This document shows, piece by piece, positions 1 to 17,487 of a DNA stretch of 17,487 nt (the stretch's first letter is position 1; every line of letters starts with the position of its first letter). The position numbers were made by a program, and so were the translations under genes. Below the pieces are notes generated by a model that saw only the letters and a program-made list of their open reading frames with translations, did no database searches and was not told the origin of the DNA. The DNA is taken from NCBI RefSeq assembly GCF_006345805.1, contig NW_021824812.1, positions 1-17,487 on the forward strand. The letters run 5' to 3'. Source of the DNA: Octopus sinensis. Its lineage: Eukaryota.

Positions 1-257
1 CTGTTTTGAGAAAGAATATGATTAATCAGAAATTCTCTGACAAAGCTATGGTTTGCACTTAGAAGTGCTCAAGAGGAACTTGAGACAAAAGATAAAATTA
101 TATATAATATGAAGAAACATAAGACCAGGTAATTTAATCCAGAAACATGACACGGATTTCAGATTAATTTAAAGAACAAGTATATGCATGATACATTAGA
201 AATAAATGAATACATAGACGTTTTTTTTTTAAATCTATAAATAAATTAATGTATTAA

Positions 258-288
<31 letters not shown>

Positions 289-375
289 ATTATTCGAGAC
301 AAAACCACTATATTTGCAAAACAACAAGGAAAGACTTAAGTAATACATAAAATTTTAATAAAGTCAAAAAAACCG

Positions 376-417
376 CCACTACAATCGTTCTTGTCTTGAT
401 CGACAATCTTCAGGTGG
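376..417 (-). ncRNA. Mirror copy of hammerhead-like motif (degenerate, one A of GAAA missing)
   Basis: Minus strand reads CCAC CUGAAGA UUGUC GAUCAA GACAA GAA C GAUU GUA GUGG. Confidence 0.45.
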
Positions 418-471
418 ACTTCCAATAATTCAGTGTCAAATTACTCATATTTGACACTGAATTATTGGAGT

Positions 472-516
472 CCACCTGAAGATTGTCGATCAAGACAAGA
501 AAAGATTGTTTAGTGG
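472..516 (+). ncRNA. Minimal type I hammerhead ribozyme-like motif
   Basis: CCAC CUGAAGA UUGUC-GAUCAA-GACAA GAAA AG-AUUG-UU UA GUGG: stem I CCAC/GUGG, intact CUGANGA and GAAA boxes, 5-bp stem II (closing pair U-A instead of the usual G-C), weak stem III, UUA triplet. Confidence 0.65.
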
Positions 517-680
517 CGGTTTTTTTGACTATTTATTAAAATTTTATGTATTAATGAAGTCTTTCCTTGTTTGTTTTGCAAAATAGTGGTTTTGTCTCGA
601 ATATATTTTATAATATTTTAATATAAAATCGATTTAATCCTAATTTTTTCCCTGTAAATTTGGATTTATTCCCTAATATT

Positions 681-717
<37 letters not shown>

Positions 718-748
718 CATAGACATACGCACACACACACACACACTT

Positions 749-896
749 GATGGGTTCTTTCAGTTTCCACGTACTAAATCCACTCACAAGGCTTTGGTCA
801 GCAGAAGACACTTGCCCAAGATGCCACGCAGTGGGACTGAACCCGGAACCATGTGGTTGGTTAGCAAGCTACTTACCACACAGCCACTCCTGCGCC
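749..896 (-). mobile_element. SINE family A, 5' half
   Basis: Reverse complement of the head ggcgcaggagtggctgtgtggtaagtagcttgc...ggttccgggttcagtcccactgcgtggc seen at 15050. Confidence 0.9.
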
Positions 897-948
897 TATA
901 TATATTATATTTATATATGAATATATATTCATACACACATTAGGTGCA

Positions 949-1017
949 GGTGCAGGTATGGTTGTGTGGAAAGAAGTTTGCTTCCCAACCAGATGGTTCT
1001 GGGTTCAGTCCCACTGC
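949..1017 (+). mobile_element. SINE family A, tRNA-head fragment
   Basis: ggtgcaggtatggttgtgtgg...ctgggttcagtcccactgc matches the family A head. Confidence 0.8.
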
Positions 1018-1535
1018 TTACCTCTTCCTGTCTCTTGTCTGGATAGTTGACATTCTCAATTGCTTTGTCTTCTTAAGATTATTTTGATCATCCATAACAT
1101 CTGCAATTCTGACTGTAATCCTATCTTCTGCTCTTCTCTCTCTGCTTTTTCTCTCCCCCCCCTTTTCCTTTCATCTTACGTTGGAGACATTCTTTCCTCT
1201 TCCTCTTATCCTGGCTCTTAAGATTTCATTTCAAAAATCATTTATTGATATACATTTTCAAGCCGAATCCAAGTTTGTAATTCATTTATTTCAGAAAGAT
1301 TTTATAAAAATCTTACAGCGATTTAACGTTTGATCAATTTTACCCAATCTGAAAATAGGATTTGTGCATAATAGTTGTGATAAAATTAAAATAAACATTA
1401 GAAGACAAAGTTTTTAACAAAATGAAAGCAATGCGTGAGAGATAATACATATAAGTAGAGAGAGGGTGATAAAAAGTTGGGTAAATATATTGAGAGGGAG
1501 AGATTTATGAAGACTGATATAGAATTATATATAGT

Positions 1536-1838
1536 GGAGGCGCAATAGCCTAGTGGTTAGGGCAGCGGACTCGCGGTCGTAGGATCGCGGTTTGATTCCC
1601 AGACCAGGCGTTGTGATTTTTATTGAGCGAAAACACCTAAAAGCTCCACGAGGCTCCGGCAGGGGGTGGTGATCCCTGCTGTACTCTTTCACCACTCTTT
1701 CTCTCACTCTTTCTTCTGTTGGCCTGCTCACTTAGCCAGCGGGGTGGCGTCATTTGAAGGCTAAAACAATGCGAAGCGCATTGTGACCAGCGATGTGTAA
1801 CAACATCTGATGGCCTGGTCGGTCACGGTGATCACGGT
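1536..1838 (+). mobile_element. SINE family B, full length, tRNA-derived
   Basis: A-box-like tagcctagtgg and B-box-like ggtttgattccc; ends in a cacggtgatcacggt repeat; flanked by 11-bp repeat atatagaatta (1517-1527, 1840-1850); second full copy at 10742-11052. Confidence 0.9.
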
Positions 1839-1850
1839 AATATAGAATTA

Positions 1851-2055
1851 AGGCGGCGAAATGCTTAGCGGTATTTCGTCTGTCATTACGTTCTGAGTTC
1901 AAATTCTGCCAAGGTTGACTTTGCCTTTCATCCTTTCAGGGTCGATTAAATAAGTACCAGTTACACACTGGGGTCGATGTAATCAACATAATCCATGTGT
2001 CTGTCCTTGTTTGTCCCCTCTGTGTTTAACCCCTTGTGGGTAGTAAAGAAATAGG
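1851..2055 (+). mobile_element. SINE family C (B-box gagttcaaatt, central gttgactttgcctttcatcctttc.gggtcga..aaataagtaccag)
   Basis: Same central segment recurs in reverse at 15505-15658 and 17347-17487. It resembles conserved central domains of metazoan SINE superfamilies (exact superfamily not assigned). Confidence 0.85.
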
Positions 2056-2312
2056 TATAGAATAGGAGAGTTGTGAATCTAAAAGTTGAGTTATTTCTCA
2101 TAACAAATTACATTCTGTTGATTTCTTTGGGTGGTGGGACTTCATATCACCAGTCTTCCACATGCTTTTTTTCCTACTTATCGGCCCATTTGGTGTTTAA
2201 GGGGCTCTGACACTGCTACCCTCGCTGTACTTCATGCCAGGGCATTGGTTCACTTGCTATGATGGATAGAAGACTATCAAGTTTCATTTTGAAGACATTC
2301 ACATCCACATTG

Positions 2313-2736
2313 CTCTTTACTCTTTTACTCTTTTACTTGTTTCAGTCATTTGACTATGGCCATGCTGGAGCACCACCTTTTTAGTCGAGCAAATCGACCC
2401 CGGCACTTATTCTTTATAAGCCTAGTACTTATTCTATTGGTCTCTTTTTGCCGAACCACTAAGTTACAGGGATCTGAACACACCAACATCGGTTGTCAAG
2501 CAATGTTGGGGGAGACAAACACAGACACACAAACACACACACTCACACACACATATATATATATACATATATACGATGGGCTTCTTTCAGTTTCCGTCTA
2601 CAAAATCCCCTCACAAGGCTTTGGTCTGCCTGAGGCTATTGTAGAAAACACTTGCCCAAGGTGCCATGCAGTGGGACAGAACCCGGAACCATGTGGTTTG
2701 TAAGCAAGCTACTTACCACACAGCCACTCCTGTGCC
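2313..2736 (-). mobile_element. SINE family A, full length
   Basis: Head, CORE-like gcaccttgggcaagtg, internal (TA/TG)n, and 3' tail ...ccagcatggcc...gtcaaatgactgaaacaagtaaaagag. Confidence 0.95.
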
Positions 2737-3219
2737 ACGTTATGTAGGTTTCTTAATTCTTTTGACAAAGCATTGAAAAGAAAAGCTGTGGGCCTTTCGA
2801 TTCCAAGCCGTTGCAATACCTGGTACTCACTTTAGTTCTCACTTTTATTATACTATGGAAGACTGAAGGGAATAAATGACTTAGTTACATATGTAGGTAT
2901 TGGTTATTGATTTACTTATTAATTTTTTACAGATACTGTGGTATATAGTTTAAATGGGTTTGGAAGTTGTGGTTTCTTTTGTATGTTTGTTCCCCAACAG
3001 CACTTCTTTTAGTGCTGTTAACACTGCTGGATTGAATAGTCCTGACCAAGTGTCGAAACCATAATGATATCCGTGAGGCAGCTGATGATGGAGGTATATT
3101 GGATTGTTGGTATGGCTGTTTTTGTATATGTGGAATAATGTTATAACACATCCTTTGGACAGAGCAGATGATAACTTTAGTACTACACAATGGCAACCAG
3201 TAAAGACATTTTCATCTTT

Positions 3220-3430
3220 CTTCTATTTGTTTTAGTCATTAAACTGTGGCCATGCTGGGGCACTGCCTTGGAGAACTTTTAGTCAAATGAAACAGCTCCA
3301 GGACTTTTTTTTAAAGCCTTACTCTATCAATCTCTTTTGGTGTGCCATTAAGTAATGGGAACATAAACATGTCAACACCAGTTGTCGAGCAGTATGTGGG
3401 GACACAAGCACAGACACAAAGACACACATA
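3220..3430 (-). mobile_element. SINE family A, diverged 3' half
   Basis: tttgttttagtcattaaactgtggccatgctggggcactgcc...gacacaagcacagacaca. Confidence 0.8.
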
Positions 3431-3535
3431 TACTCTTTTACTTGTTTCAGTCACTTGACTGCGACCATGCTGGAACACCGCCTTTTGTCGAACAAATCGA
3501 CCCCAGGATTTATTCTTTGTAAGCCCACTACTTAT
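3431..3535 (-). mobile_element. SINE family A, 3' tail fragment
   Basis: ctcttttacttgtttcagtcacttgactgcgaccatgctgg...tattctttgtaagccca. Confidence 0.85.
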
Positions 3536-3818
3536 GAGAACATTTTTAATAGTTCCTTTAAGACTTGCTTCCGGGTCACAAACGGAGATGAACCTATCTC
3601 ATTATCACTGGGGACAAAGTCCCCAGACTGAGCGTAGAGATTAATGATTTGAGGAATCGTATCAAACCTATCAGCTGCCTCCAGTTGATGCAATGATGCC
3701 ATTTGGCGGCGCTGGGAGTTGTTGGTAGGTATCTTCGTCATAGTACAGACTGATGCAAGTGGCACTTCAGTGTTAACTAAATAGGGATTACTCTAAAGGA
3801 ATTTCTTTCTCTTTTATA

Positions 3819-4270
3819 GGCACAGGAGTGGCTGTATGTTAAGTAGCTTGCTTACCAACCATATGGTTCCGGGTTCAGTCCCACTGCGTGGCACCTTGGA
3901 CAAGTGTCTTCCATTGTAGCCTTGGGCTGACCAAAGCCTTGTGAGTGGATTAGGTTGACAGAAACTGAAAGAAGCCCGTCGTATATATGTATGTGTGTGT
4001 ATGTATATATATATATATATATGTGTGTGCGTGTGTGTGTGTGTGTGTATATGTTTATGTGTCTGTGTTTGCCTCCCCAACACTGCTTGACAGCTGATGT
4101 TGGTGTGTTTATGTCCCAATAATTTAGCAGTTCGGCAAAAGAGACCAATAGAATAAGTACTAGGCTTACAAAGAATAAGTCCTGGGTGCGATTTGCTCAA
4201 CTAAAGGCGATGCTCCAGCATGGCCACAGTCAAATGACTCAAACAAGTAAAAGAGTAAAGAGTAAGAGTA
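3819..4270 (+). mobile_element. SINE family A, full length
   Basis: Collinear with 13534-13939 and 15050-15460. Confidence 0.95.
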
Positions 4271-4291
4271 ATAAAGGAAGTTAGTTGGTAT

Positions 4292-4459
4292 TTTACAGAA
4301 CTAATGAAAATTTCGAACATGGGATAGCTGTGAAAACAATGTAGAAAGTTGGGTAAACAGACTAGAAAACGTTTTTCTGTCTTTTAAGGGTATTTATCCA
4401 ATTTTCTGACCTGTTTTCAAAGCTATCCTGTGTTTGAAACTTGCTTCATTTTCTGTAAA
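4292..4459. repeat. Diverged inverted repeat (old MITE or fold-back remnant)
   Basis: 4292-4359 vs reverse complement of 4391-4459 share tttacagaa, aatgaa, ggatagct.tgaaaaca, agaaa.ttgg.taaa. Confidence 0.6.
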
Positions 4460-4524
4460 TTACATATATGTATTATATGGCCTGACAAATGAAGTGAGTT
4501 CATGGCCTGCAGGATGGCCGGCTG

Positions 4525-4847
4525 TGCTTACCTTGGATCGTAGGGCAATCTGCTGTGCTTGAGGAGACCTATTGAGTCAAGTACAACCACATCAAAATAA
4601 AATTCAAATGGAAATTGAAGTTGTGATACCCAGTGGTCGATGCCAGCAGCACCTTGACTGGAACATAAAAAGCACCCACTAAACTCTTGGAGTGGTTGGC
4701 GTTAGGAAGGGCATCCAGCTGCAGAAACACTGCCAGATCAGATTGGAGCCTGGTACAGCCTCCTGGCTTTCTAGACCCCAGTTGAACCGTCCAACCCATG
4801 CCAGTATGGAAAACGGACGTTAAATGATGATGATGATGATGATGATG
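4525..4847 (+). mobile_element. 3' end of retroposon with (GAT)n tail (RTE-type LINE/SINE tail, inferred)
   Basis: ggttggcgttaggaagggcatccagctg...ccgtccaacccatgccag...ggacgttaaa(tga)n; related copy at 12017-12180. Confidence 0.75.
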
Positions 4848-5008
4848 TGTATGTGTAGTAAGAAGCTTGCTTCCCAACTATGTGGTTCCAGGTTCAGTCC
4901 CACTGTGTGGCACCTTGAGCAATTGTTTTCTACTATAGCCATGGACTGACTAAAGCCTTGTGAATGGATTTGGTACACACAAAATTAAAGAAGCCTGTCA
5001 CATATATA

Positions 5009-5060
<52 letters not shown>

Positions 5061-5267
5061 ATGTATGTGTATATGTTTGTGTGTGTTTTTGTCTCCCCAT
5101 CACCACTTGACAGCTGATGTTGGTGTGTTTATGTCCACATAACTTAGCAGTTCAGTAAAAGAGACTGATAGAATATGTACAAGGCTTAAAAAATAAGTAC
5201 TGGGGTGGATTCAAGGTGGTGCTCCAGCATGACTGCAGTCAAATGACTGAAACAGATAAAAGATAAA
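4848..5267 (+). mobile_element. SINE family A, near full length, diverged
   Basis: Head (agaagcttgcttcccaac...ggttcagtcccactg), internal (TA)n, tail cagtcaaatgactgaaac. Confidence 0.9.
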
Positions 5268-5310
5268 CATACATATACATACATACATATATACATATAA
5301 ATATATATAT

Positions 5311-5366
5311 GCGGTGCCCCAGCATGGCCACAGCTCAAGAGCTGAAACTGGAAAACAACAAACAAC
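5311..5366 (+). mobile_element. Very short 5'-truncated retroposon 3' tail related to the SINE A tail
   Basis: gcggtgccccagcatggccacagctcaagagctgaaac followed by an A/C-rich tail; sister copy at 8906-8962. Confidence 0.7.
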
Positions 5367-5413
5367 ATATATATATACATACATACATATATATGTATGT
5401 ATGACCATACACA

Positions 5414-5525
5414 GTTTTGGTCAGTAGAAGACATTTGCCCCCAAGGTTAGTACTGTGCAGTGGGACGGAACCCAGAACTATGTGGTTGGGAAGCAAACTC
5501 CTTACCATACAGTCATGCCTGTGCC
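5414..5525 (-). mobile_element. SINE family A, diverged 5' part
   Basis: ttggtcagtagaagacatttgccc...gtgggacggaacccagaactatgtggttggg...gcctgtgcc. Confidence 0.8.
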
Positions 5526-5598
5526 TATCCACACAGCCATACTTGTGCACTGAAGTTAGGTACAAACCCTTCCAGAATTTTCTACCTGTCAATTATTA

Positions 5599-6165
5599 TT
5601 GGGTTGTCCGGAAAGTTTGTGCCGATTTATAGTATCTTACCTTTCGACTTATTTTAGAACATGGTTGAGTCCATAAAATAGGATTTGACTACACCTCCAT
5701 TTAGAACACAGTTTAAGCTATATTTTCATGGAAGAAGGTTTATGTTCCTATAACCTGTGTTAATTCTGTAATCCTTTAAAATGGAAGATAAGAAAGTTCA
5801 TTTTCGGCACTTGAGGCTTTTGGGAACCAGACAAAAATTGCTACAGCTCAGCTGGGATGTGTTACCCCACCCTCCATATTCACCAGATATTGCTCCTTCG
5901 GATTTCCACTTATTCAGGTCTCTGCAGAATAGTCTTAATGGTAAAAATTTCAATTCCTTGGATGACGTAAAAAGATACCTTGATGAATTCTTTGCCATGA
6001 AACCACCTCAAATCTGGGAAGAGGGTATTTTCAAGTTAAAGGAAAGATGGAGATGCATTGTGCAACAAAATGGTTTATATTTAGTTGATTAAAAATGTAA
6101 TGGCAAGTATTTATTGACCTTTTTCTTTCCTTTAAAAATCGGCATGAACTTTCCGGACAACCCAG
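5599..6165 (+). mobile_element. Internally deleted mariner (Tc1/mariner) transposon, mellifera-subfamily-like
   Basis: 30-bp TIRs ttgggttgtccggaaagtttgtgccgattt (5599-5628) and aaatcggcatgaactttccggacaacccag (6136-6165), 27/30 complementary; TA on both sides (5597-5598, 6166-6167); transposase remnant inside. Confidence 0.95.
5781..6092 (+). pseudogene. Mariner transposase remnant: N-terminal ~11 aa fused in frame to C-terminal ~90 aa
   Basis: MEDKKVHFRHL (mariner N-terminus) joined to TRQKLLQLSWDVLPHPPYSPDIAPSDFHLFRSLQNSL...ERWRCIVQQNGLYL. The YSPDLAPSD-type motif is present; the HTH and the first two catalytic Asp regions are absent. Confidence 0.9.
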
Positions 6166-6797
6166 TAAAATTCAAAAGTGTCTTCCCTCCAGAGAAATTG
6201 TTACCAGCAACCATCCAGCTTCTTCCATTCCAAAAAATTAATATTTTTAGACAGCAATGCTCCACATTCCATAAAAGGAGAAAACAAGAGCTTACAGTCT
6301 AGAAAATTAGTGAAATTTGCTATTTCTGGTTTTAATGTGGCAAACTTGATCGAGTGTCTACTGATGGGAATTTCCAAAATTATGTCTGATGGCACTAATT
6401 TATTAATAACGACATTAATATTGATAAAAGAAACATTATATGGAACATTGCCATTACATACAACAAAATGCACAACAAGGGAAAATATTCTAGGCTCTAT
6501 ATCTATATTTAGATAATGTATATATCTCATCTTTCCCCTGTCTACTGTATTCTTATTGTTATTCTACTGTTCTTTATCCCCTACCCGTTTTCCGCACTGT
6601 CAGTCATCACCTACTCTCCCCTGCTTCTCTTTGAATTCATTTGTATCTGAAGCCATCCTCACACCTTTTCCATCCTTCAACTTACCAGATTTCTGCAGTT
6701 GTCACCTACACTCCCCTCTTCCCTTCTTATTTCCACAAACATTGTTCATCATTCATTAGATGCCACCACCACCCCTTCATCCATTCCCATCTCTCGT

Positions 6798-7030
6798 CTT
6801 TTATTATTTACTTGTTTCAGTCATTAGACTGCGACCATGCTGGGGCACCACCTTGAAGATTGTTTAGTCATAAAAAAAAACTGCCCCTCCCCTAACCACC
6901 AGTACATTTTTGTTTTAAATCTGGTACTTCGTTTATCAGTCCCTTACCAAACGGCTAAGTTACAAGAACGTAACCAAACCAACACTGGTTGTCAAGCAGT
7001 GGTGGAGGACAAACACAGACACATACACAC
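6798..7030 (-). mobile_element. SINE family A, diverged 3' half
   Basis: tacttgtttcagtcattagactgcgaccatgctggggcacc...ggttgtcaagc...gacaaacacagac. Confidence 0.85.
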
Positions 7031-7046
7031 TCGCATATATATGGTC

Positions 7047-7270
7047 TTTTATTCTTTTACTTATTTGTCATTTGACTCTGGCCATGCTGGAGTACCACCT
7101 GAAAGGGTTTTTTTAGTCAAAGAAATCAACCCCAAGACTTATTCTTTGTAAGCTGAGTACTTATTCTATCGGTCTCTTTGCCGAACTGCTAAGTTACAGG
7201 GACACAAAAGCACCAGCATTGGTTGTCAAGCGAGGACAGTGGAGACAAACACAAACACACATATACCAAA
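7047..7270 (-). mobile_element. SINE family A, 3' half
   Basis: cttttacttatttgtcatttgactctggccatgctggag...ttattctatcggtctctttgccgaactgctaag...gacaaacac. Confidence 0.9.
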
Positions 7271-7508
7271 TATATACATACATATATATATACATACAAA
7301 GGGGTTTGTATGATTGTGTATAGAGGGATATATATTATTCAAAGGAATTCCAATTCTGTCTGTTTTTTATGTTTTATTTATATTCTTATGATATTGATAT
7401 TGGATATTGGATATAGAATATATAGTAAGAAAGAAATGAAATGAAGTATTGATTGTCTTATTGAACAAATGAAATATTGAAAATTAAATATTAAATGTCT
7501 ATTCTCAT

Positions 7509-7551
7509 TGAACTAGTATACTTCCTTGCATGTAAGCATTCATCAGGTTCA
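7509..7551 (-). ncRNA. Minimal type I hammerhead ribozyme-like motif (two apparent point defects)
   Basis: Minus strand UGAAC CUGAUGA AUGC-UUACAU-GCAA GGAA G-UAUA-C UA GUUCA: perfect 5-bp stem I, perfect CUGAUGA, stem II UGC/GCA with basal A.A mismatch, GGAA for GAAA, palindromic stem III AGUAUACU. Confidence 0.6.
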
Positions 7552-7582
7552 GATTGTGACAGGAATGCTTCGACTGTGTTTT

Positions 7583-7625
7583 ATATATATATATATAAAC
7601 ATATATATATGTATATATATGTTTA

Positions 7626-7717
<92 letters not shown>

Positions 7718-7720
7718 TAT

Positions 7721-7794
<74 letters not shown>

Positions 7795-7900
7795 TATATA
7801 TATATGTATATATATGTATGTATATATATATATATGTATATATGTATATATATAAACATATATATACATATATATACACATATATATATATATATATATA

Positions 7901-7939
<39 letters not shown>

Positions 7940-7963
7940 CATATATAAACATATATATACATG

Positions 7964-7994
<31 letters not shown>

Positions 7995-8002
7995 CACATA
8001 TA
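7583..8002. repeat. Long interrupted (TA)n microsatellite
   Basis: Direct reading; source of the poly-IY ORFs. Confidence 0.98.
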
Positions 8003-8167
8003 CACGATGGGCTTCTTTCAGTTTCTGTCTACCAAATCCACTTGCAAGGCTTTGGTTGGAATGATGCTATAGTAGAAGACACTTGCTCAAGGTGCCACTC
8101 AGTGGGACTGAACCCAGAACCATGTGGTTAGTAAGCAAGCTTCTTACCATATAGCCAAGCCTGCACC
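8003..8167 (-). mobile_element. SINE family A, 5' half
   Basis: cgatgggcttctttcagtttc...gtgggactgaacccagaaccatgtgg...cctgcacc. Confidence 0.9.
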
Positions 8168-8182
8168 TATATACATACAAAA

Positions 8183-8430
8183 AAGAATAAAGGCCCTTCC
8201 TGGGTCATATAGACTCATAGGGCCGGTTTCCTGGTTTTTCTGGTTCCTCTGTATCCCTCTCCAGAAGGGACACTGGCCCATCACAGGATTACTTCTTTTC
8301 CCCAGCTGATTGGACTGGAGCAACATGAAGTGTTTCGCTCAAGAACAAAATGCTTCGCTTGGGCGAGTATTTGAAACCACAATCTTATGAACACAAGTCC
8401 AACACCCTAACCACTGAGCCATACACCTCC
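8183..8430 (-). mobile_element. SINE family D, tRNA-derived
   Basis: Minus strand ggaggtgtatggctcagtggttagggtgttggac...ggtttcaaatac (A/B boxes), then ttgctccagtccaatcagctgg...cctgtgatgggccagtgtccc (V-domain-like, from memory); partial copy at 11849-11940. Confidence 0.8.
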
Positions 8431-8715
8431 CTACATGTCCATAGATTTAAACAAAGTGTGTGTGTGTATGTGTATGCATGTGCCATTTCTTTTAGAGCTT
8501 TATAATTCATAATATATTTGTATTGTTTTTATAAAAAGCTTTCAGCCTCATTATATAATAAAAATAAATTATTTATACATCCATAATTCTCCATTTTTTT
8601 CTTTCATCATCATCAACAATATATATTACTATTTCTCGTTATATGATAGTGATTAATCAGTGAAATTTTTGGATTATTTAATCCCTAATGAGGACCTGAC
8701 ATCCTCAAATTGACT

Positions 8716-8838
8716 ATCACCGTGATCACCGTGACCGACCAGGCTATCAGATGTTGTTACACATCGCTGGTCACAATGTGCTTCGCATTGTTTTAGCCTT
8801 CAAATGATGCCACCCCGCTGGCTAAGCGAGCAGGCCAA
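8716..8838 (-). mobile_element. SINE family B, 3' fragment
   Basis: Reverse complement of ~1719-1838. Confidence 0.9.
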
Positions 8839-8856
8839 TATATATATATATATATA

Positions 8857-9265
8857 TAGAAAAAAACACCTTTTTATCAATTCAAAATTAACTTTTATTT
8901 AAAATGGCGGTGCCCCAGCATTGCCACAGCTTGTGAGCTGAAACTAGATAAATAAAAAAATAAATTAAATTACACCATCTAGAAAATTACATATAATAGA
9001 AGTAGTAAAATTATATATGTTTTTATTTTTTTTTTTTGCAATTTACTTAATCATTGATATTTTATTGTTATTTTAATTTTAATACTTCTATTATATGTAA
9101 TTTTCTAGATGGTGTCATTTAATTGTTCATTTTGAATTGATAGAAGGTGTTTTTTTTCTAATTTTTTATGTATATATATTATATTGCATGAAATTTGATT
9201 TAGTATTTCTAAATTGAATTTTTTTTCCCTGTAAGTTTGGATTTATATTCCCTCAAATAATAATT
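8857..9265 (+). mobile_element. Fold-back element 2 with unpaired 3' tail shared with element 1, flanked by (TA)n
   Basis: Arms 8857-9013 (interrupted by a ~70-bp insert at 8893-8962) and 9074-9160 are reverse complements; tail 9217-9253 aatttttttt ccctgtaagtttggatttatattccct matches 642-674. Confidence 0.7.
8906..8962 (+). mobile_element. Short retroposon 3' tail inserted in the left arm of fold-back 2
   Basis: ggcggtgccccagcattgccacagcttgtgagctgaaac plus A-rich tail; absent from the mirror arm. Confidence 0.75.
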
Positions 9266-9278
9266 ATATATATATATA

Positions 9279-9498
9279 CTGGAGTAAGCACATAAATGTG
9301 AAACAAGGTGGGAAAAAGAGTACTCAAATACCAGAGGTAGAGTTATATGCTTTATTTAAAAGCAGCAGAAATATAACAAAAGCTGTTACTCAGAGTTTCA
9401 CATTCCCGTTCATCGGACAATTTTGTTAACAAAACTGTCCGACGAAAAGGAGCATGAAACTCTGAGTAACAGCTTTTGTTATATTTCCGCTGCTTTAA
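9279..9498 (-). mobile_element. Fold-back element 3: loop-less palindrome 9357-9498 with hammerhead-like motifs, AATAAA and tail ending at (TA)n
   Basis: Symmetry centre ttttgtt|aacaaaa (9427/9428), ~70-bp arms; the unpaired tail 9279-9356 reads aaataaagcatataactc...ctccag(TA)n on the minus strand. Confidence 0.7.
9383..9420 (-). ncRNA. Minimal type I hammerhead ribozyme-like motif, U4C core variant
   Basis: Minus strand UUGU CCGAUGA ACG-GGAA-UGU GAAA CU-CUG-AG UA ACAG; GUA triplet. The mirror copy at 9435-9472 (+) has CCGACGA and GAAAC but a decayed stem II. Confidence 0.55.
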
Positions 9499-10396
9499 TG
9501 CTTACAGCTTAGTTTTTTTTCTTGGGGCTGGCCGAGTTGGAGCAAATATCAGAATTGAACAGCCAAAATTTGCTATGATGATTCGGTGTCTGACTGAAGA
9601 TTGAAGGCTTCGAATGATTGTCTGTGTTCCGTGTTCGTCCTTCCTGTATTTCACGTTCATTATATATAAAAACATTCATTCTTATATTATTGCGGCGTTA
9701 CGTGCACCCCCCGTTTGTTTGTCCAATTTTAAACCCTGCACGACTTCTATACACACTGTCTTTTACTACCCGCCATTGCTTCTTCACCAAACTTTTTTGG
9801 CGCCCTCCGATTCTTCCCCTCTCTTCCTCCCATCCTCCTCCCCTCTTCCTCCCATCCTCCTTAATCCCTTCTTTCTCCTTCTCTCTTGGTCACTGATTCT
9901 GTCCCCTGCCTTCCACCCTCTTTGATTCCCTCTCTCTCTGTCTCTCTTCTCTCTCTCCTGACCTGCTGCTTCTTCAACCATTCTGTTGGCCTTCGTATCT
10001 CGACCAACATGTGTCCCCGCTACCGAAACGGTAATTATTCTTTACGCCAGCTGCTATGTTGTTGTTTTGTCTCATTTGGTCTAAAGTCGTATGACAACCA
10101 CCGTTATATACATTTTGTTTTTTCATTACTGTTTTCATTTCGTTTTCGTCTCTTGTATTCACATCCGTCTTGTGCGTTCACATTCCTGTCTTCTACCAAG
10201 AAATCTAATGCTTACAGCTTAGTTTTTTTTTTCTTGGGGCTGGCCGAGTTGGAGCAAATATCAGAATTGAACAGCCGAAATTTGCTATGATGATTCGGTG
10301 TCTGACTGAAGATTGAAGGCTTCGAATGATTTGTCTGTGTTCCGTGTTCGTCCCTTCCTGTATTTCACGTTCATTATATATAAAAACATTCATTCT
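9496..10396. repeat. ~900-bp element with ~190-bp near-identical direct repeats (9496-9682, 10206-10396), unclassified
   Basis: Both copies read taatgcttacagcttag...ggggctggccgagttggagc...aaaacattcattct; the interior contains a pyrimidine-rich tract at ~9805-9965. Confidence 0.85.
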
Positions 10397-10403
10397 CATT
10401 ATA

Positions 10404-10442
<39 letters not shown>

Positions 10443-10456
10443 TACATATATATATA

Positions 10457-10735
10457 TATATAATTAAATATAATTAAGGGGTAAGCAACAAGTTGCTTCA
10501 CCACATACCGAAAATTTAGAAATAGCAGCCAAAGACAGCCCATTCCTTTTTACTACTTTGGCTGCTATTTCTAAATTTTCGGTATGTGGTGAAGCAACTT
10601 GTTGCTTAACCCTTAATTATATTTAATTATATGTAAAAGTTTCTACCGATAATGCTTCTCTTTCCATACCAAAACTACTTGGTAAAATTTATTAATTATT
10701 AAATTAATAATTCTTTACCCTATATCTGTAATAAT
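10457..10735 (+). mobile_element. Fold-back element 4: ~77-bp near-perfect inverted arms plus unpaired tail, between (TA)n tracts
   Basis: 10457-10534 vs 10556-10632 (21-nt loop); tail 10633-10735; no hammerhead core in the retained part. Confidence 0.65.
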
Positions 10736-10741
10736 ATATAT

Positions 10742-11052
10742 ATCACCATGATCACCGTGACCGACCAGGCTATCAGATGTTACTATACATCGCTGGTCAC
10801 AATGCGCTTCGCATTGTTTTTAGCCTCAACTGACGCCACCCCGCTGGCTAAGTGAGCAGGCCAACAGCAGAAAGTGTGAGAGAAAGTTGTGGTGAAAGAG
10901 TACAACAGGGGTTGCCACCACTCCCCTGCTGGAGCCTCATGGAGCTTTAGGTGTTTTCGCTCAATAAACACTCACAACGCCCGGTCTGGGAATGAAAACC
11001 GCGATCCTACAACCACGAGTCCACTGCCTAACCACTGGACCATTGTGCCTCC
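10742..11052 (-). mobile_element. SINE family B, full length
   Basis: Reverse complement collinear with 1536-1838. Confidence 0.92.
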
Positions 11053-11081
11053 ACAATAATACATATATATACATATATATA

Positions 11082-11123
<42 letters not shown>

Positions 11124-11488
11124 CGTATTTTGGGATGGTAATTTTTTTCTTTTTGCCAAATAAACACACGCACTATATTTTTTTTTCTCTCACATATTAC
11201 TGTTCTTAATTTATTATTTTGACTCATGTCCATTGTCCAGAAATCTTTTGTTACATATCTTTGACCGCTTCAGCGATACTTTTCATTTTCATGCATGATC
11301 TTGCTCCACTCATACCATTCTGTTCTTCGAAGACGTGTATCCTTATGTGTATATATATGTATATATGTGTGTGTGTTTGCATTGCAATTCTTAGCATTTA
11401 TGTATTAGCCTTTTGGGTACTTCACTGGCAGTATATTGGATAAATGATATCCCATAGTGGGTTACTCATAACCCCTATCTCACTTGTA

Positions 11489-11523
<35 letters not shown>

Positions 11524-11650
11524 ATATATATTATATATATATAGATGAGTGTTATTTTTACCTTGTTAACAATAACGGAAAAAAAAATAAATAGTTACCA
11601 GGGCAGCAAAAATATTTGATTACACCTGCGTTAACTCCATTTTTTTATTC

Positions 11651-11652
11651 AA

Positions 11653-11687
<35 letters not shown>

Positions 11688-11729
11688 GTATATGTGTGTG
11701 TAAATTCATAGATATATATTTATATTCAC

Positions 11730-11770
<41 letters not shown>

Positions 11771-11848
11771 TGTTTATATATACATACTTATATATATATA
11801 CATGTTTATATATACATACTTATATATACATACTTTTATATATATATA
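11651..11848. repeat. Interrupted (TA)n/(TG)n microsatellite
   Basis: Direct reading. Confidence 0.9.
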
Positions 11849-11940
11849 TTGCTCCAGTCCACTCAGCTGGCAAAAATGAGTTATCTTGTGATAGACCAGT
11901 GTTCCATACAGAGGAACCAGGAAACTGGTTCAATGAGTCT
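11849..11940 (+). mobile_element. SINE family D, internal fragment
   Basis: ttgctccagtccactcagctgg...cagaggaaccaggaaactgg matches the reverse complement of ~8210-8323. Confidence 0.75.
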
Positions 11941-12016
11941 CTTTCTCTATATATGTGAGTGTGTGTGTGTGTGTGTGTGTATGTATATGTTTATGTACAT
12001 GTATGTATACATTTCT

Positions 12017-12180
12017 GGATGGTTGGTGTTTGGAAGACCATCCAGCTGTAAAAATCCTGATAAAGCAATCACAGAAGTTTGGTGCAGGCTTCTGCCTGGC
12101 TGGTTCCTGTCAAACTGTCCCACCCATACCATCATAGAAGGCAGATGGTAAATGATGATGATGATGATGATGATGATGAT
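12017..12180 (+). mobile_element. Diverged retroposon 3' end with (GAT)n tail
   Basis: ggttggtgtttggaagaccatccagctgtaaaaa...ctgtcccacccatacca...taaa(tga)n; homologous to ~4690-4847. Confidence 0.75.
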
Positions 12181-12354
12181 AGGTTTAACGAAAGTGCTCA
12201 CGCACTAGAAAAAAAATTCTTCTCAAAAAAGAGGTTAGTAAGTTCCTCATAAAAAAATTCATAACATTTTTTTAAAAACATCACCTTTACACTTCAAAAA
12301 ACTCATAGGCTTTCAGATATATATATACACACACAACACATAATATAGGCTTTT

Positions 12355-12537
12355 ATCTATAGATATATTATATATATATATATAGTATATGAGATACTAT
12401 ATATACTAGATATATAATATAGATATATATATAGATATATATAGATATATATATATGATCTTATATATATATATATGTATATAGATATATATATATATGT
12501 ATCTATATATATATATATATATAGTATATATATATTA

Positions 12538-12583
<46 letters not shown>

Positions 12584-12663
12584 TATCTATATATATATAT
12601 ATATAGTATATATATATATATAGTACTATATATATATATGTATGATATATATAGTATATATAT

Positions 12664-12753
<90 letters not shown>

Positions 12754-12830
12754 GGTATATATATACATATATATTATGTATAGATATATATATATATATA
12801 TACATATATAGTATATATATATATATTATA

Positions 12831-12879
<49 letters not shown>

Positions 12880-12889
12880 ATATATATAC

Positions 12890-12923
<34 letters not shown>

Positions 12924-12928
12924 TATAT
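12355..12928. repeat. Long interrupted (TA)n microsatellite
   Basis: Direct reading. Confidence 0.98.
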
Positions 12929-13533
12929 GCACACAAACACAGATATATTTGAGTATGTGTATTTATAATGTATACTCATGTACACATCTACATCTGCACT
13001 TACACACACACACAAACACACATACACACAGGTACATTATACATATACACACATATATGTATCACTATTTCTGCCACAATTGTCACTTACCAAACATCAT
13101 CTCGTGATCTCTTCTGTTTTCTCTCTCTCTCTCTCTCTCTCTTTCTCCATCATTTCACCCCCCCCCCCGAACAATCCCATGTTTCACTCTTTCACATATC
13201 AGCTGGCCTTCATGTTGGAAAACGAAGCACATGGCTTAACGACCCTTCATCTGCTCTTCACCTTTTCATCTTCTATATATGGCACTTTCGCTTTACCACA
13301 AAACATACCATCTCTCACTGAATCATGGCATTGCTTTCCCAAGATTCTTCATAACCAAAGACTCTAAGAAAAATGTCTATCATTCAATTTCTTTCTCATA
13401 TTTATCTTCCAGATATTAAAACTTTTTTACTAATTCCATTTTATTACTAATTTATATGGAAATTCCCTTTTGTTACCAATTTATATGGAAATACAATGTA
13501 GTTTCCATATAAATTTCTAACTATACGTATATA

Positions 13534-13939
13534 GGTGCAGGAGTGGCTGTGTGGTAAGTAGCTTGCTAACCAACCACATGGTTCCGGGTTCAGTCCCACT
13601 GTGTGGCATCTTGGGCAAGTGTCTTCTGCTATAGCCCCGGGCCGACCAATGCCTTGTGAGTGGATTTGGTAGACGGAAACTGAAAGAAGCTTGTTGTATA
13701 TATGTATATATATATATATGTATGTGTGTGTGTTTGTGTGTCCGTGTTTGTCCCCCTAGCATTGCTTGACAACCGATGCTGGTGTGATAACGTCCCCGTC
13801 ACTTAGCGGTTCGGCAAAAGAGACCGATAGAATAAGTACTGGGCTTATAAAGAATAAGTCCTGGGGTCGATTTGCTCGACTAAAGGCGGTGCTCCAGCAT
13901 GGCCGCAGTCAAATGACTGAAACAAGTAAAAGAGTAAAG
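13534..13939 (+). mobile_element. SINE family A, full length, young
   Basis: Very similar to 15050-15460 along its whole length. Confidence 0.97.
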
Positions 13940-14330
13940 CGTATATATATATATATATATACACTTGTTCATACACTTTTTTATACTCCTTTATTTTTTT
14001 TATTATACATATATATATAATTAATAATGTCAGAGTAATAAAGATTTTAGTAATTTTTACTACCTGTGGCCTAGCGTGTAGAAAAATTAGTCAATAGACT
14101 ATATATTATTCATATGAATACACTGTACATCTCAACACATAATAGGATTCCTTTCATGCTAGAAAGAACAGCTAAAGTCCAAACCACTATTAGGGATAAA
14201 AATTCTTGAGGGGAATGAAAAATAAAAACAATTATCATCTATTTCCTGGACCATGGTTTCTGACTTATTTTAGTAAATAAAATAATTTGTTAGGCAAAGT
14301 CTTCATCAACAGCATGAAAGGAATCTTGTG

Positions 14331-14870
14331 AACCACCACTACCACCACAACCACCATCACTACCACCACCACAACCACAACCACCATCACTACCACAACC
14401 ACCATCACTACCACCACAACCACAACCACCATAACAACCACCACAACCACCACCACAATTACCATCACTACCACTACAACCACCACCACAACCACAACCA
14501 CTTCCACTACCATAACCACCACCACTGCCATTACCACCACAACCACCACTACGACTATTCTCATCATCACCATAAGTAATATTACCACCATGTCAACGAC
14601 AACAACGCTGACCACCACCACCACCACCACTGCTACCACCATCGCCACTAGCACCACCAACACCACAACCAGCACTATAACATTAACACAGCATTAACAC
14701 CACCATCACTGCCACCACTGCTATCACCACCACCACCATCCCCACCACCACCATCACTACCATCACCACCACACCATCACCACCACCACCACCATCACCA
14801 ACCAACATCACCGCTGCCATCCTCAATACCTCCACTGCTACCACCACCACCACCATCGCCACCACCATTT
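14331..14870. repeat. Degenerate (CAC/CAA/CAT)n trinucleotide repeat
   Basis: Direct reading; gives the poly-His, poly-Thr and poly-Val ORFs. Confidence 0.95.
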
Positions 14871-15049
14871 TTCTACTGCTGCTACTACTGCACTCAGATG
14901 CTGCGGTTTGTTGCATTTGGTGTGTTGCAGCTGCGCGCAGGAAGTGCAATGACAATCTAAAGCAACTACAGAAAGAGAAAGAGAGAGAGAGAGAGGACTT
15001 TTAGAGTAGCATTCGACTGCATACATAGATATATGTATGTATGTATATA

Positions 15050-15212
15050 GGCGCAGGAGTGGCTGTGTGGTAAGTAGCTTGTTTACCAACCACATGGTTC
15101 CGGGTTCAGTCCCACTGCGTGGCATCTTGAGCAAGTGTCTTCTACTATAGCCTCGGGTCAACCAAAGCCTTGTGAGAGGATTTGGTAGACGGAAACTGAA
15201 AGAAGCCTGTCG

Positions 15213-15243
<31 letters not shown>

Positions 15244-15459
15244 GTGTTGTGTGTCTGTGTTTGTCCCCTAGCATTGCTTGACAACCGATGCCGGTGTGTG
15301 TTACGTCCCCATCACTTAGCGGTTCGGCAAAGAGACCGATAAATAAGTACTGGGCTTACAAAGAATAAGTCCCGGGGTCGATTTGCTTGACTAAAGGCGG
15401 TGCTCCAGCATGGCTGCAGTCAAATGACTGAAACAAGTAAAAGAGTAAAAAGAGTAAGA

Positions 15460-15460
<1 letters not shown>
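15050..15460 (+). mobile_element. SINE family A, full length, young
   Basis: tRNA-like head with A/B boxes, CORE-like segment, internal (TA)n, stem-loop tail, gagtaaaa terminal repeats. Confidence 0.97.
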
Positions 15461-15495
<35 letters not shown>

Positions 15496-15504
15496 AATAT
15501 TGGC

Positions 15505-15658
15505 TACTAATTTTGGTGCAAAACCTGCAATTTTGTGGGGAGGGGCTAAGTTGATTACAACGGCTCCCTAGCGTTTGACAAGTACTTATATCTTATTGAC
15601 CCCGAAAGGATGAAAAGCAAAGTCAACCTCGGCAGCATTTGAACTTTAGAACATAAAG
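15505..15658 (-). mobile_element. SINE family C, diverged partial copy
   Basis: ttgaccccgaaaggatgaaaagcaaagtcaacctcggcagcatttgaact is the reverse complement of ~1896-1945. Confidence 0.8.
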
Positions 15659-15673
15659 ATGGAATGTGAAAAA

Positions 15674-15823
15674 TGTGACTGGATGGTAAGAAGCTTGCTT
15701 CCCAATCACATGGTTCTGGGTTCAGTCTCATGCATGCCTCCTTGTGCAAGTGTCTTCTACAATAGCCTCGGGCCAACCAAAGCCTGATGAGTGGATTTGG
15801 GAGACACAAACTGAAAGAAGCCC

Positions 15824-15825
<2 letters not shown>
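15674..15825 (+). mobile_element. SINE family A, diverged 5' half
   Basis: ggtaagaagcttgcttcccaatcacatggttctgggttcagtc...aactgaaagaagccc. Confidence 0.85.
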
Positions 15826-15857
<32 letters not shown>

Positions 15858-16110
15858 ATCAGCAACAATTTAGATTCAAATGAAAATGGTACTTAATTTA
15901 GATGCACCAGAATTTTGTATGGTGTTACCCATAAAAATTTGCGGGGTGATTATAATAAAAAATAAGCAACAACGGAATCATTCTTGTTGCTTGTTTTTAT
16001 ATATATATATATAATATATTTATATTATATATATATTAATACTAATGGTAAGACAATAAAAAGATGGATTTGAGATCGATATTATGTAAACAGAGAAATT
16101 ATAGATATCT

Positions 16111-16141
<31 letters not shown>

Positions 16142-16590
16142 ATATATATAATAATATATATTAGAAGAAATATATAATACCTGTACATCATCTCCAAACC
16201 TTCCAATATATATATATATTATATATATACATAAATAATATTCACCTTACTTCAAGCTGTGCAGATAGTACCAGACTAACTTGGTGCTTCAATTTAAGTA
16301 CCTAATTCAATTGAATCTCCTTATATATATATATATATATCGTTGTTATTATGTTAAACTGTTGTATGTCCAAATTTGGCCAAATGCGTTTTTTTCCATA
16401 TTTACTTTTACTTGCAATAGCCAGTTCTTTTGGTGAAAGTATCGTATCTCCAGCTGCTTCAGATGCCAAGATATCAAAAATTGTCAAAGTGTAGTACAAC
16501 GGTTTTTCTATGGAATGGTGAAATTATTTTTTTCATTTTCTGAAAAAGCAACATTTTGGACTTATGACACTTTTGCATAATAGCAAGGAT

Positions 16591-16878
16591 TTATTCTATT
16601 GACCTTTTTTGCCAAACCGCTAAGTTACAGGAACATAAACACACCAACACCGGTTGGTGTATGTGTGTCTTTGTGTCTGCGTTTGTTCCCAACCACTGAT
16701 TGACAACCGGTGTTGGTTTGTTGACATTCCCGTAACTTAGCGGTTTGGCAAAAGTGATTAATAGAATAAATTCCAGGCTTAAAAAAATGTATTTGCATTG
16801 ATACATTTGACTAAAATTCTTCAAAGTGGTGCCCCAGCATGGCCACAGTCTAATGACTGAAACAAATAAAAGAATAAA
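16591..16878 (+). mobile_element. SINE family A 3' half preceded by an inverted SINE A internal fragment
   Basis: 16657-16878 is the 3' half on +; 16591-16656 is the reverse complement of 16704-16769. Confidence 0.85.
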
Positions 16879-16921
16879 AAACTGTGCTTTATATACATGC
16901 AAATGCATTTATAAATATATA

Positions 16922-17083
16922 GGTGCAGGAGTGGCTGTGTGATAAGTAGCTTGCTTACCAACCACATAGTTCCTGGTTCAGTCCCACTGCGTGGCACCTT
17001 GGGCAAGTGTCTTCTACTATAGCCTTGGGCTGACCAAAGCCTTGTGAGTGGATTTGGTAGACAGAAACTGAAAGAACCCTATC

Positions 17084-17115
<32 letters not shown>

Positions 17116-17335
17116 GTGTGTGTATATATACATATATATATATTTATGTGTTTGTATATGTACATGTTTGTGTATAATTCCTTGACAACTGATGTTGGTG
17201 TGTTTACATCCTTGTAACCTAGTGGTTCAGCAAAAGAGCCCAATAGAATAAGCCCCTGGGTCAATTTGTTTGACTAAAGGCAGTGCTCCAGCATGGCTGC
17301 AGTTAAATGACTGAAACAACTAAAGGAAAAAAAGA
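16922..17335 (+). mobile_element. SINE family A, full length with small internal deletions
   Basis: Collinear with 15050-15460. Confidence 0.93.
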
Positions 17336-17346
17336 ATATATATTAG

Positions 17347-17487
17347 TTTCAGCTTTTGGCACAAGGCCAGCAATTTCATGAGAGGAAGTACATCATCTAC
17401 ATTGACCCCACTGCTCAACTGGTCCTTATTTCATTGCCCCCGAAAGGATGAAAGGCCAGGTCAAACTCCAGCAGCATTTGAACTCAG
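17347..17487 (-). mobile_element. SINE family C, diverged, cut by window end
   Basis: ccccgaaaggatgaaaggccaggtcaaactccagcagcatttgaactcag. Confidence 0.8.

Follow-up and report, generated by a model that had tools for sequence, protein, structure and literature searches.

Tailed palindromes in the genome of Octopus sinensis as ends of Penelope-like elements, probably copied from one sense RNA at two fixed sites

A stretch of 17,487 nt from the Octopus sinensis genome (assembly GCF_006345805.1, contig NW_021824812.1, positions 1 to 17,487; hereafter the window) carries four palindromes, A (291-684), B (8857-9265), C (9279-9498), and D (10457-10735), and two further inserts, E (9496-10399) and F (7295-7580). 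With high confidence, A to D and F are the hammerhead-bearing ends, or pseudo-long terminal repeats (pLTRs), of several Penelope-like element (PLE) families, and these elements are ordinary in kind. The palindromes have two fixed 3′ ends, (TA)n at both of them, variable and often lopsided centres, and the same variants in both arms. Judged from these genomic junctions, it is probable that one sense RNA was copied from two fixed sites by both strands of the target.

Self-alignment of the window recovered inverted arms at 240-649 (A, 87 %, flanking TA included), 9359-9496 (C, 88 %), and 10455-10635 (D, 89 %), and for family B at 8963-9124 together with 8837-8892/9125-9180, the left arm of B being interrupted by a 70 nt piece (8893-8962) that resembles a short interspersed nuclear element (SINE). 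Each of A to D has an unpaired tail of 75-100 nt on one side, with (TA)n at its end. In the 2.72 Gb genome searched, which is rich in SINEs and (TA)n, a first look returned 1930 candidate copies of A, 1874 of B, 3574 of C, and 2562 of D. All four are thus repeat families and not chance palindromes. An earlier note on this DNA had described four tailed palindromes of unrelated sequence; the palindromes are real, but they are not all unrelated, since A and B have homologous tails (mean column identity 79 %).

Family A was sampled with a 24-mer from its tail, which has 3161 exact matches in the genome (reversed control, 0). The first 70 distinct tail sites were fetched from the exact-match list, in coordinate order. 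A (TA)5 starts within 20 nt of 69 of the 70 tails and of 31 of the 33 tail-less arm ends, compared with a background of 2520 out of 79,680 positions (3.2 %) in 20 arbitrary 10 kb stretches and 11 % in the window. Insertion into (TA)n, a feature of the Hydra clade of PLEs, is therefore found in A. The tails do end at (TA)n, as had been noted, but the tract is not confined to the tail side, since it also borders the tail-less arms. Variable centres and enrichment of (TA)n at the tails, both proposed earlier as checks, were found when these were run. Rough counts of adjacent TA in best-match loci are 26 out of 29 for C, 15 out of 22 for B, and 7 out of 19 for D, those for B and D having imperfect anchors. 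In the window, the outer far end of C is joined not to (TA)n but to element E, which the earlier note does not list.

The long copies of A connect the palindrome to a coding element. They consist of a 24 nt exon 1, an intron of 1811-1828 nt, and an exon 2 with the hammerhead, an internal site (site 2), and the tail, which ends at site 1. The intron has a GT donor and an AG acceptor on the strand reading into the tail, and is lost from the short copies. Among the 70 tailed arms, nine are spliced and nine are unspliced, while 52 could not be scored because of their shortness or divergence; of the opposite, tail-less arms, 16 are spliced and three unspliced. The window copy is spliced. Its tail-less arm (291-444, minus strand) follows a (TA)n tract at 258-290 and runs from site 2 back to approximately +7 of the spliced RNA; its tailed arm (445-608, plus strand) has exon 1 joined to exon 2 and site 2 near 601-612; and its tail (609-684, plus strand) lies between site 2 and site 1, followed by (TA)n at 685-714. 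In the family, the tail is 80-85 nt and both putative priming sites, which are AT-rich and TA-like in the precursor, lie within the 5′ untranslated region (UTR). A spliced full-length mRNA would therefore yield a copy of about 250 nt, which would account for short A palindromes in the thousands.

In three long copies (L198+L199, L194+L195, and L278) the A tail runs on for about 60 nt to an open reading frame (ORF). Its motifs (alignment A1) are RIKWK, with K for R at the first position of the RWK motif, SDKT, CTCRDKSNC, CYLC, and CRH. By these motifs it matches a Hydra-type reverse transcriptase (RT)/endonuclease, in having RWK-like and DKT motifs, a CxCX5C linker, and CxxC and CxH around E and N, and in lacking CCHH. 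It has 15 relatives of full-length type at E≤1e-10, with identity of up to 41 %; a Pfam scan of the A frames gave no RT or GIY-YIG match. Beside this, the RT thumb in the ORF (L195:69-1862) is followed by an asparagine-rich insert of about 100 residues that four relatives lack.

Element F (7295-7580, minus strand) is TA-rich on both sides, has no inverted arm, and is 74-79 % identical to the 3′ ends of the ORF-bearing copies L134, L136, and L140. The F-type ORF has RT and GIY-YIG frames, with PF01541 at the cut-off (E 1.3e-4) and a weak RVT_1 match. A CX2-5CxxC linker of the Neptune clade precedes the C-terminal GIY-YIG (CKDSRCGTC in L189, CNDNRCCTC in L183) and is degenerate in L407. F is therefore the 5′-truncated 3′ end of a Neptune-type PLE, its clade assigned by motifs only, and C possibly belongs to the Neptune clade as well.

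Set against the published features of endonuclease-bearing (EN+) PLEs, an ORF with RT and GIY-YIG joined to the repeat is present for A and F, in one degenerate copy for C, and not for B, D, or E. The pLTRs are in partial tandem or inverted arrangement with an optional tail, which is 70-100 nt here and 30-40 nt in the described elements. The pLTRs are 5′-truncated and, as shown for A only, have an intron in the 5′ UTR; minimal type I hammerhead motifs occur in A, B, C (variant core), D, and F, that of E being non-canonical. The suggestion in the earlier note of TA-targeting, ribozyme-carrying retroelements is thus upheld, by the ORFs, the intron loss in A, the (TA)5 at A tails, and the variable centres. 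Such targeting and the tailed inverted architecture are already described for PLEs, including a Hydra family of Octopus bimaculoides (PMC8557442). The features in which the octopus elements vary are the length of the tail and the high copy number of spliced palindromes made of 5′ UTR only. Several observations count against this identification: a search for ORFs about 8 kb upstream of long copies (eight of B and six of D) found none in line with the element, the link of C to an ORF comes from a single copy (L407) downstream of a decayed Neptune-type ORF, and no ORF link was found for E. Copies of this kind are easily misfiled in annotation as miniature inverted-repeat transposable elements (MITEs).

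Hammerheads were called by core and stems as minimal type I motifs. In the window, A has a core on the plus strand (476-482) and another on the minus strand (413-407), C has a U4C-type core on the minus strand, and F has a motif on the minus strand (7551-7509) in which one A of GAAA is missing, while E has GAAU in place of GAAA at 9594 and 10306. In B and D the hammerhead of the family sits upstream of the truncation of the window copies. The earlier count of two hammerhead-bearing palindromes is therefore right for motifs in the window (A and C), but B and D are also hammerhead families; a third motif, reported at 7509-7551 in a TA-flanked insert, is present and belongs to F. The better ribozyme was said to lie on the strand reading into the tail, however there are lesions in both A arms of the window, and the motif is intact on both strands in 24 of the 29 best A copies, so that the family as a whole does not follow this rule. 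Folding of the motifs was no better than that of shuffles (z −0.66 to 1.15), and an Rfam scan of the window reported no hammerhead family. MicroRNA matches over the palindromes in Rfam were below the gathering score and reflect hairpins.

The same note had proposed that integration ends by fold-back of the cDNA, in which case the tail-less arm must be contained in the tailed arm. For A, the start of an inverted arm lies no more than 520 nt away at 51 of the 70 sites; 37 of these aligned well, and 36 are distinct; nine of the 36 are compatible with fold-back and 27 fail. The tail-less arm extends at least 25 nt further 5′ in seven of the 36, and the reverse holds in two. For C, 19 scorable one-tailed, two-armed insertions were found among the first 30 of 1016 matches. 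The tail-less arm reaches further 5′ in 16, the arms are equal in two, and one is compatible with fold-back, so that 18 fail. The window copy of D likewise has approximately 25 nt of family sequence in the tail-less arm only, and in the A copy L194+L195 about 1 kb of ORF is found in the tail-less arm only. Fold-back is not supported by these insertions, because a tail-primed cDNA cannot supply sequence to the tail-less arm that is absent from the tailed arm.

Other junctions are informative about the template. At four diagnostic variants, no difference was seen between the two arms of an insertion (0 out of 24, 26, 58, and 34), and paired A arms end in the same zone, both at +1-30 in 14 pairs and both at +72-100 in 11, with no mixed pairs (p=2e-7). 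Splicing state is not mixed between arms in any of the 10 scorable A pairs. The two 3′ ends are fixed 70-100 nt apart, the tail being the distance between them, and tails occur on either side, on both sides, or on neither. The tailed arm ends at +153 to +190 in the A copies L047, L050, L052, L094, and L115, and no further than about 10 nt from site 2 in six of the 19 C insertions, or four when neighbouring loci that duplicate each other (L387/388 and L392/393) are collapsed. Together, the shared variants, matched end zones, fixed outer ends, and stops at site 2 fit priming at two sites, by two strands, on one sense RNA.

It is likely that each palindrome arose when the protein of the element nicked both (TA)n strands and copied one sense RNA twice, with the cDNAs joined head to head. 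The GIY-YIG endonuclease would nick both strands within (TA)n, and each 3′ end would then prime at an AT-rich site of the RNA. The cDNA started at site 1 may halt at site 2, giving parts that do not overlap, as in L1 twin priming, or may displace the cDNA started at site 2, giving a palindrome. Both cDNAs would run toward the 5′ end of the RNA, which for A would be the start of transcription and for about 40 % of the B arms the hammerhead cut, and their ends would be joined with 0-4 nt of overlap or a few added bases. Some caution is called for. The samples are exact-match lists in coordinate order, in which older copies are missed; microhomology at A junctions is little, mostly 0-1 nt; concordant arms and matched end zones are expected under fold-back too; and the asymmetries could be the result of sequence lost from the centres once the palindromes had been inserted.

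Fold-back would have a tail-primed cDNA reach its 5′ limit, fold back, and copy itself as far as site 2, with later deletions in the centre making the arms lopsided. Loss of the centre is known for long perfect palindromes, the identical variants and matched end zones are accounted for, and the nine compatible A insertions and the window copy of B fit without any deletion. However, the failing A and C insertions would each call for a further event, a number of tailed arms stop right at site 2, and the ORF in L194+L195 is on the wrong arm. Fold-back also does not say why the inverted arm should stop at a single TA-like site within (TA)n, or why there are single arms without a tail and pairs of the tail-less/tail-less and tail/tail kinds, and it is unlikely to be the usual route. 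Two-strand priming on two separate RNAs that share one active source locus and that a protein dimer holds would make those pairs (L097, L370/371, and L377/378) easy to explain and would not need strand displacement; minimal hammerheads are, moreover, thought to cleave as dimers (PMC4209133). The absence of any pairing of a start-site arm with a +72-100 arm (0 out of 25), or of a spliced with an unspliced arm, would not be expected from two RNAs, and tailed arms that halt at site 2 suggest collision on one. The chance that two RNAs were used is small, and if anything a little smaller than that of fold-back.

For rotifer Penelopes it has been proposed that an antisense template primes itself (PMC3846280), which is a published account of head-to-head palindromes and of intron retention, and nine of the 70 tailed A arms do keep the intron. 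Nevertheless, nine tailed and 16 opposite arms have precisely lost an intron that is GT-AG in the sense direction, which needs a sense RNA, as do arm ends at a sense-strand initiator-like site (17 out of 100) and at a sense-strand ribozyme cut. This proposal is contradicted for the spliced copies and is very improbable as a general explanation. That the copies are ordinary MITEs or long-read palindrome artefacts is hardly credible at all. They are short, abundant inverted repeats in TA, and the window copy has single-base deletions of a kind typical of assembly error; however, neither MITEs nor artefacts would explain 5′ truncation, intron loss, continuity with RT ORFs, or family-specific fixed ends at thousands of loci. 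Fixed symmetrical terminal inverted repeats with a target-site duplication, the mark of a MITE, were not seen, the tail being one-sided, the centre and length variable, and any duplication unreadable inside (TA)n. Two-strand priming on one sense RNA remains the preferred reading.

Where the arms stop at the 5′ side differs between families. Of 72 A arm ends, 35 fall between −3 and +28, 24 between +79 and +98, and 13 beyond, the interval from +29 to +78 being empty. Counted by hand, 17 arms among the first 100 out of 703 matches terminate at +1, within an initiator-like TCA+1CTT. In 11 of these 17 a C follows, which the other arm could supply in 10 (hand count); this is at most suggestive of a base derived from the cap. 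In family B, a pattern just downstream of the predicted hammerhead cut has 119 matches; of the 100 that were listed, 40 have their end precisely at the cut (hand count). A script run on the fetched loci of the first 94 entries gave 93 arms, of which 37 stop exactly at the cut, 22 stop one to three bases short, 11 stop one to four beyond, and 23 read through. Among arms that reach the bond, 52 % stop there, compared with 8-15 % at neighbouring positions with any stop. An A is added in 33 of the 37 exact stops, among which five tail variants are represented.

From these genomic ends, it is probable that the hammerhead defines 5′ ends in family B, although not in general. That the exact stops go back to one truncated master copy is disfavoured, because they span five tail variants that are also seen in read-through copies, although 19 of the 37 exact stops have no scorable tail, and 24 share the three following letters. 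Dead cores among the B read-through arms were considered as evidence (14 out of 17 have a lesion) but were not used, because a neutral stem II CpG is changed or absent in seven of the 17 and decay would explain much of this. The other families do not bear out a general role for the cut. In A the predicted cut falls after +71, the second cluster of ends lies 7-26 nt past it and not on it, no arm ends at +72 to +78, and arms spanning the ribozyme have an intact core in 51 out of 62. No C arm stops at the predicted cut in the first 100 of 1016 matches; C ends cluster 2-20 nt upstream of the variant core. Cut-defined ends are thus found in one of three tested families. In the full proposal, both nicked strands of a (TA)n tract serve a dimer of the PLE protein in copying a single sense RNA at two fixed sites, and the B hammerhead cuts this RNA in vivo and so sets the 5′ end of the insertion with nucleotide precision; this proposal has about an even chance of being correct. 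If true, this would be the first genomic read-out of the role of a PLE hammerhead, and the inverted pLTR and the tail would be explained in one step.

In L1 twin priming, the second target strand primes internally, so that an inverted 5′ part is joined to a 3′ part; its internal site is variable, and there is no overlap between the parts. In the octopus palindromes, by contrast, the internal site is fixed for each family and the parts usually overlap. Inverted 5′-truncated pLTRs, a tail of 30-40 bp, hammerheads, and a (TA)n bias have been described for PLEs (PMC8557442), and the supplement has entries for Hydra-1_Obim (O. bimaculoides) and for three Octopus Naiads, with preference for (TA)n. 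Family A is like the Hydra-clade PLEs (Craig et al., 2021; PMC8557442) in its C-terminal endonuclease, RWK-like and DKT motifs, CxCX5C linker, CxxC and CxH without CCHH, hammerhead, and (TA)n. It differs from them (PMC8557442) in its 1.8 kb 5′ intron, its tail of 80-85 nt rather than 30-40 bp, its asparagine-rich insert, and its thousands of spliced, pLTR-only palindromes. Compared by eye with Hydra-1_Obim, which is noted as ‘no pLTR’ in that supplement, A differs in its N-terminus and hammerhead and counts as a separate family.

The closest parallel in vitro is PAc, a Poseidon PLE of Anolis carolinensis, which nicks both strands and extends them at two sites on the RNA that bound the tail, has AT-rich targets and internal initiation in the 5′ pLTR region, and is a predicted dimer (Frangieh et al., 2024; PMC11167929). 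The octopus copies share the AT-rich targets and would share the two RT start sites at the borders of the tail, the nicking and extension of both strands, and the internal initiation. In the available part of that report, the inverted arm is not attributed to the second site, cleavage is dispensable in vitro, and no RNA reads end at the cut, whereas genomic B arms pile up at it here. The Penelopes of Adineta vaga have head-to-head inverted pLTRs, an optional tail, and an initiator TCACT (Arkhipova et al., 2013; PMC3846280). The octopus copies resemble them in arrangement, tail, and initiator, in N-rich ORF inserts, and in captured host genes. Antisense self-priming with intron retention was proposed for Adineta (PMC3846280), however the short octopus copies are spliced, and a HERC1-like capture in A has no evident introns. 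The octopus evidence thus disagrees with that proposal and fits the in vitro behaviour of PAc (PMC11167929).

Opposite-strand hammerhead pairs 100-700 bp apart have been noted (PMC4209133). An octopus repeat annotation counts Penelope families, and its available part does not contain the word ‘hammerhead’ or ‘palindrom’ (PMC13282606). In the literature searched, which did not extend to subscription papers, Repbase, or Dfam, no account was found that traces the inverted arm to twin priming at two sites, and none of genomic ends at a PLE hammerhead cut. How PLEs make inverted ends is an open question according to PMC8557442, and the activity and role of the hammerhead in vivo are ‘still a mystery’ (PMC7761336). 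The octopus families offer thousands of countable junctions that separate models with a sense or antisense template, fold-back or two strands, and cut or uncut RNA, and family B offers a defined ribozyme with a nucleotide-level prediction for assay.

The remaining window copies vary in completeness. In B, the tail-less arm (8857-9007, minus strand) is the one split by the SINE-like piece and has (TA)n at 8838-8858, and the tailed arm (9008-9265, plus strand) starts about 11 nt past the predicted hammerhead cut of the family, with a tail at approximately 9181-9265. The sense strand of C is the minus strand, on which the tailed arm (9279-9427) has site 2 near 9355, a tail at 9358-9279, and (TA)n at 9265-9278; its tail-less arm is at 9428-9498 (plus strand). 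In D, the tail-less arm (10457-10547, minus strand) follows (TA)n at 10400-10462 and is the longer of the two at its 5′ end, and the tailed arm (10548-10735, plus strand), with a tail at 10636-10735, is 5′-truncated downstream of the hammerhead and has a short (TA)n next to it.

Family D also forms non-coding tandems (L402 and L403) with a unit of about 500-550 nt. Element E (9496-10399, plus strand) is a partial tandem of a non-coding unit of about 700 nt, with 97 % repeats at 9496-9685 and 10206-10399. Units of this kind are in partial tandem at 29 loci, with a variable 5′ end and a 3′ end fixed in (TA)n, TA being next to it in 26 of the 29, and no inverted arms occur among the best matches. 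There are 5091 candidates, with 97-99 % identity over the 200 nt repeat, and the family is young. Animal non-LTR (non-long terminal repeat) retrozymes are non-coding tandems with type I hammerheads, proposed to be mobilized by PLEs (PMC7761336; bioRxiv 10.64898/2026.07.22.740005), and D and E look like these. The short copies of A, unlike retrozymes, are 5′ UTR copies of a coding element and not tandem circles.

Some further features of these families were observed. An A subfamily (L033, L204, L205, and L212) has a shorter intron of 1122-1161 nt with GA rather than GT at the donor in all four copies, and is likely to be unspliceable yet amplified. In L196+L197 (G000:C1:78168500-78184000), two inverted A arms of 4.2 kb enclose about 5.7 kb of HERC1-like coding sequence (approximately 5106-10770 of the joined stretch), with frames of 819, 609, and 525 aa and RCC1 repeats. 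The best PDB match is HERC1 (E 1e-97), and it is likely that a spliced host mRNA was captured by template switch. At the tail ends of A and B (for example L031, L048, L053, and L337), the number of ATT/AAT triplets before (TA)n varies, which suggests slippage during priming. Fragments of other Hydra- and Neptune-type PLE families, some in head-to-head inverted pairs, are present in L313:880-1290, L344, L128, L409/L410, and L413.

Elsewhere in the window, an RNase MRP RNA gene at 3550-3803 (plus strand; 93.9 bits, gathering score 50) sits between SINEs. Inverted ends (88 %) at 5591-5631 and 6133-6172 flank a 106 aa frame at 5772-6092 to which Pfam gave no match, and which presumably resembles the C-terminus of a mariner transposase. 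A degenerate (ACC)n tract of about 540 nt lies at 14332-14867. Local inverted repeats also occur at 828-1017, 13449-13521, and 16589-16771, those at 828-1017 and 16589-16771 being head-to-head SINE pieces.

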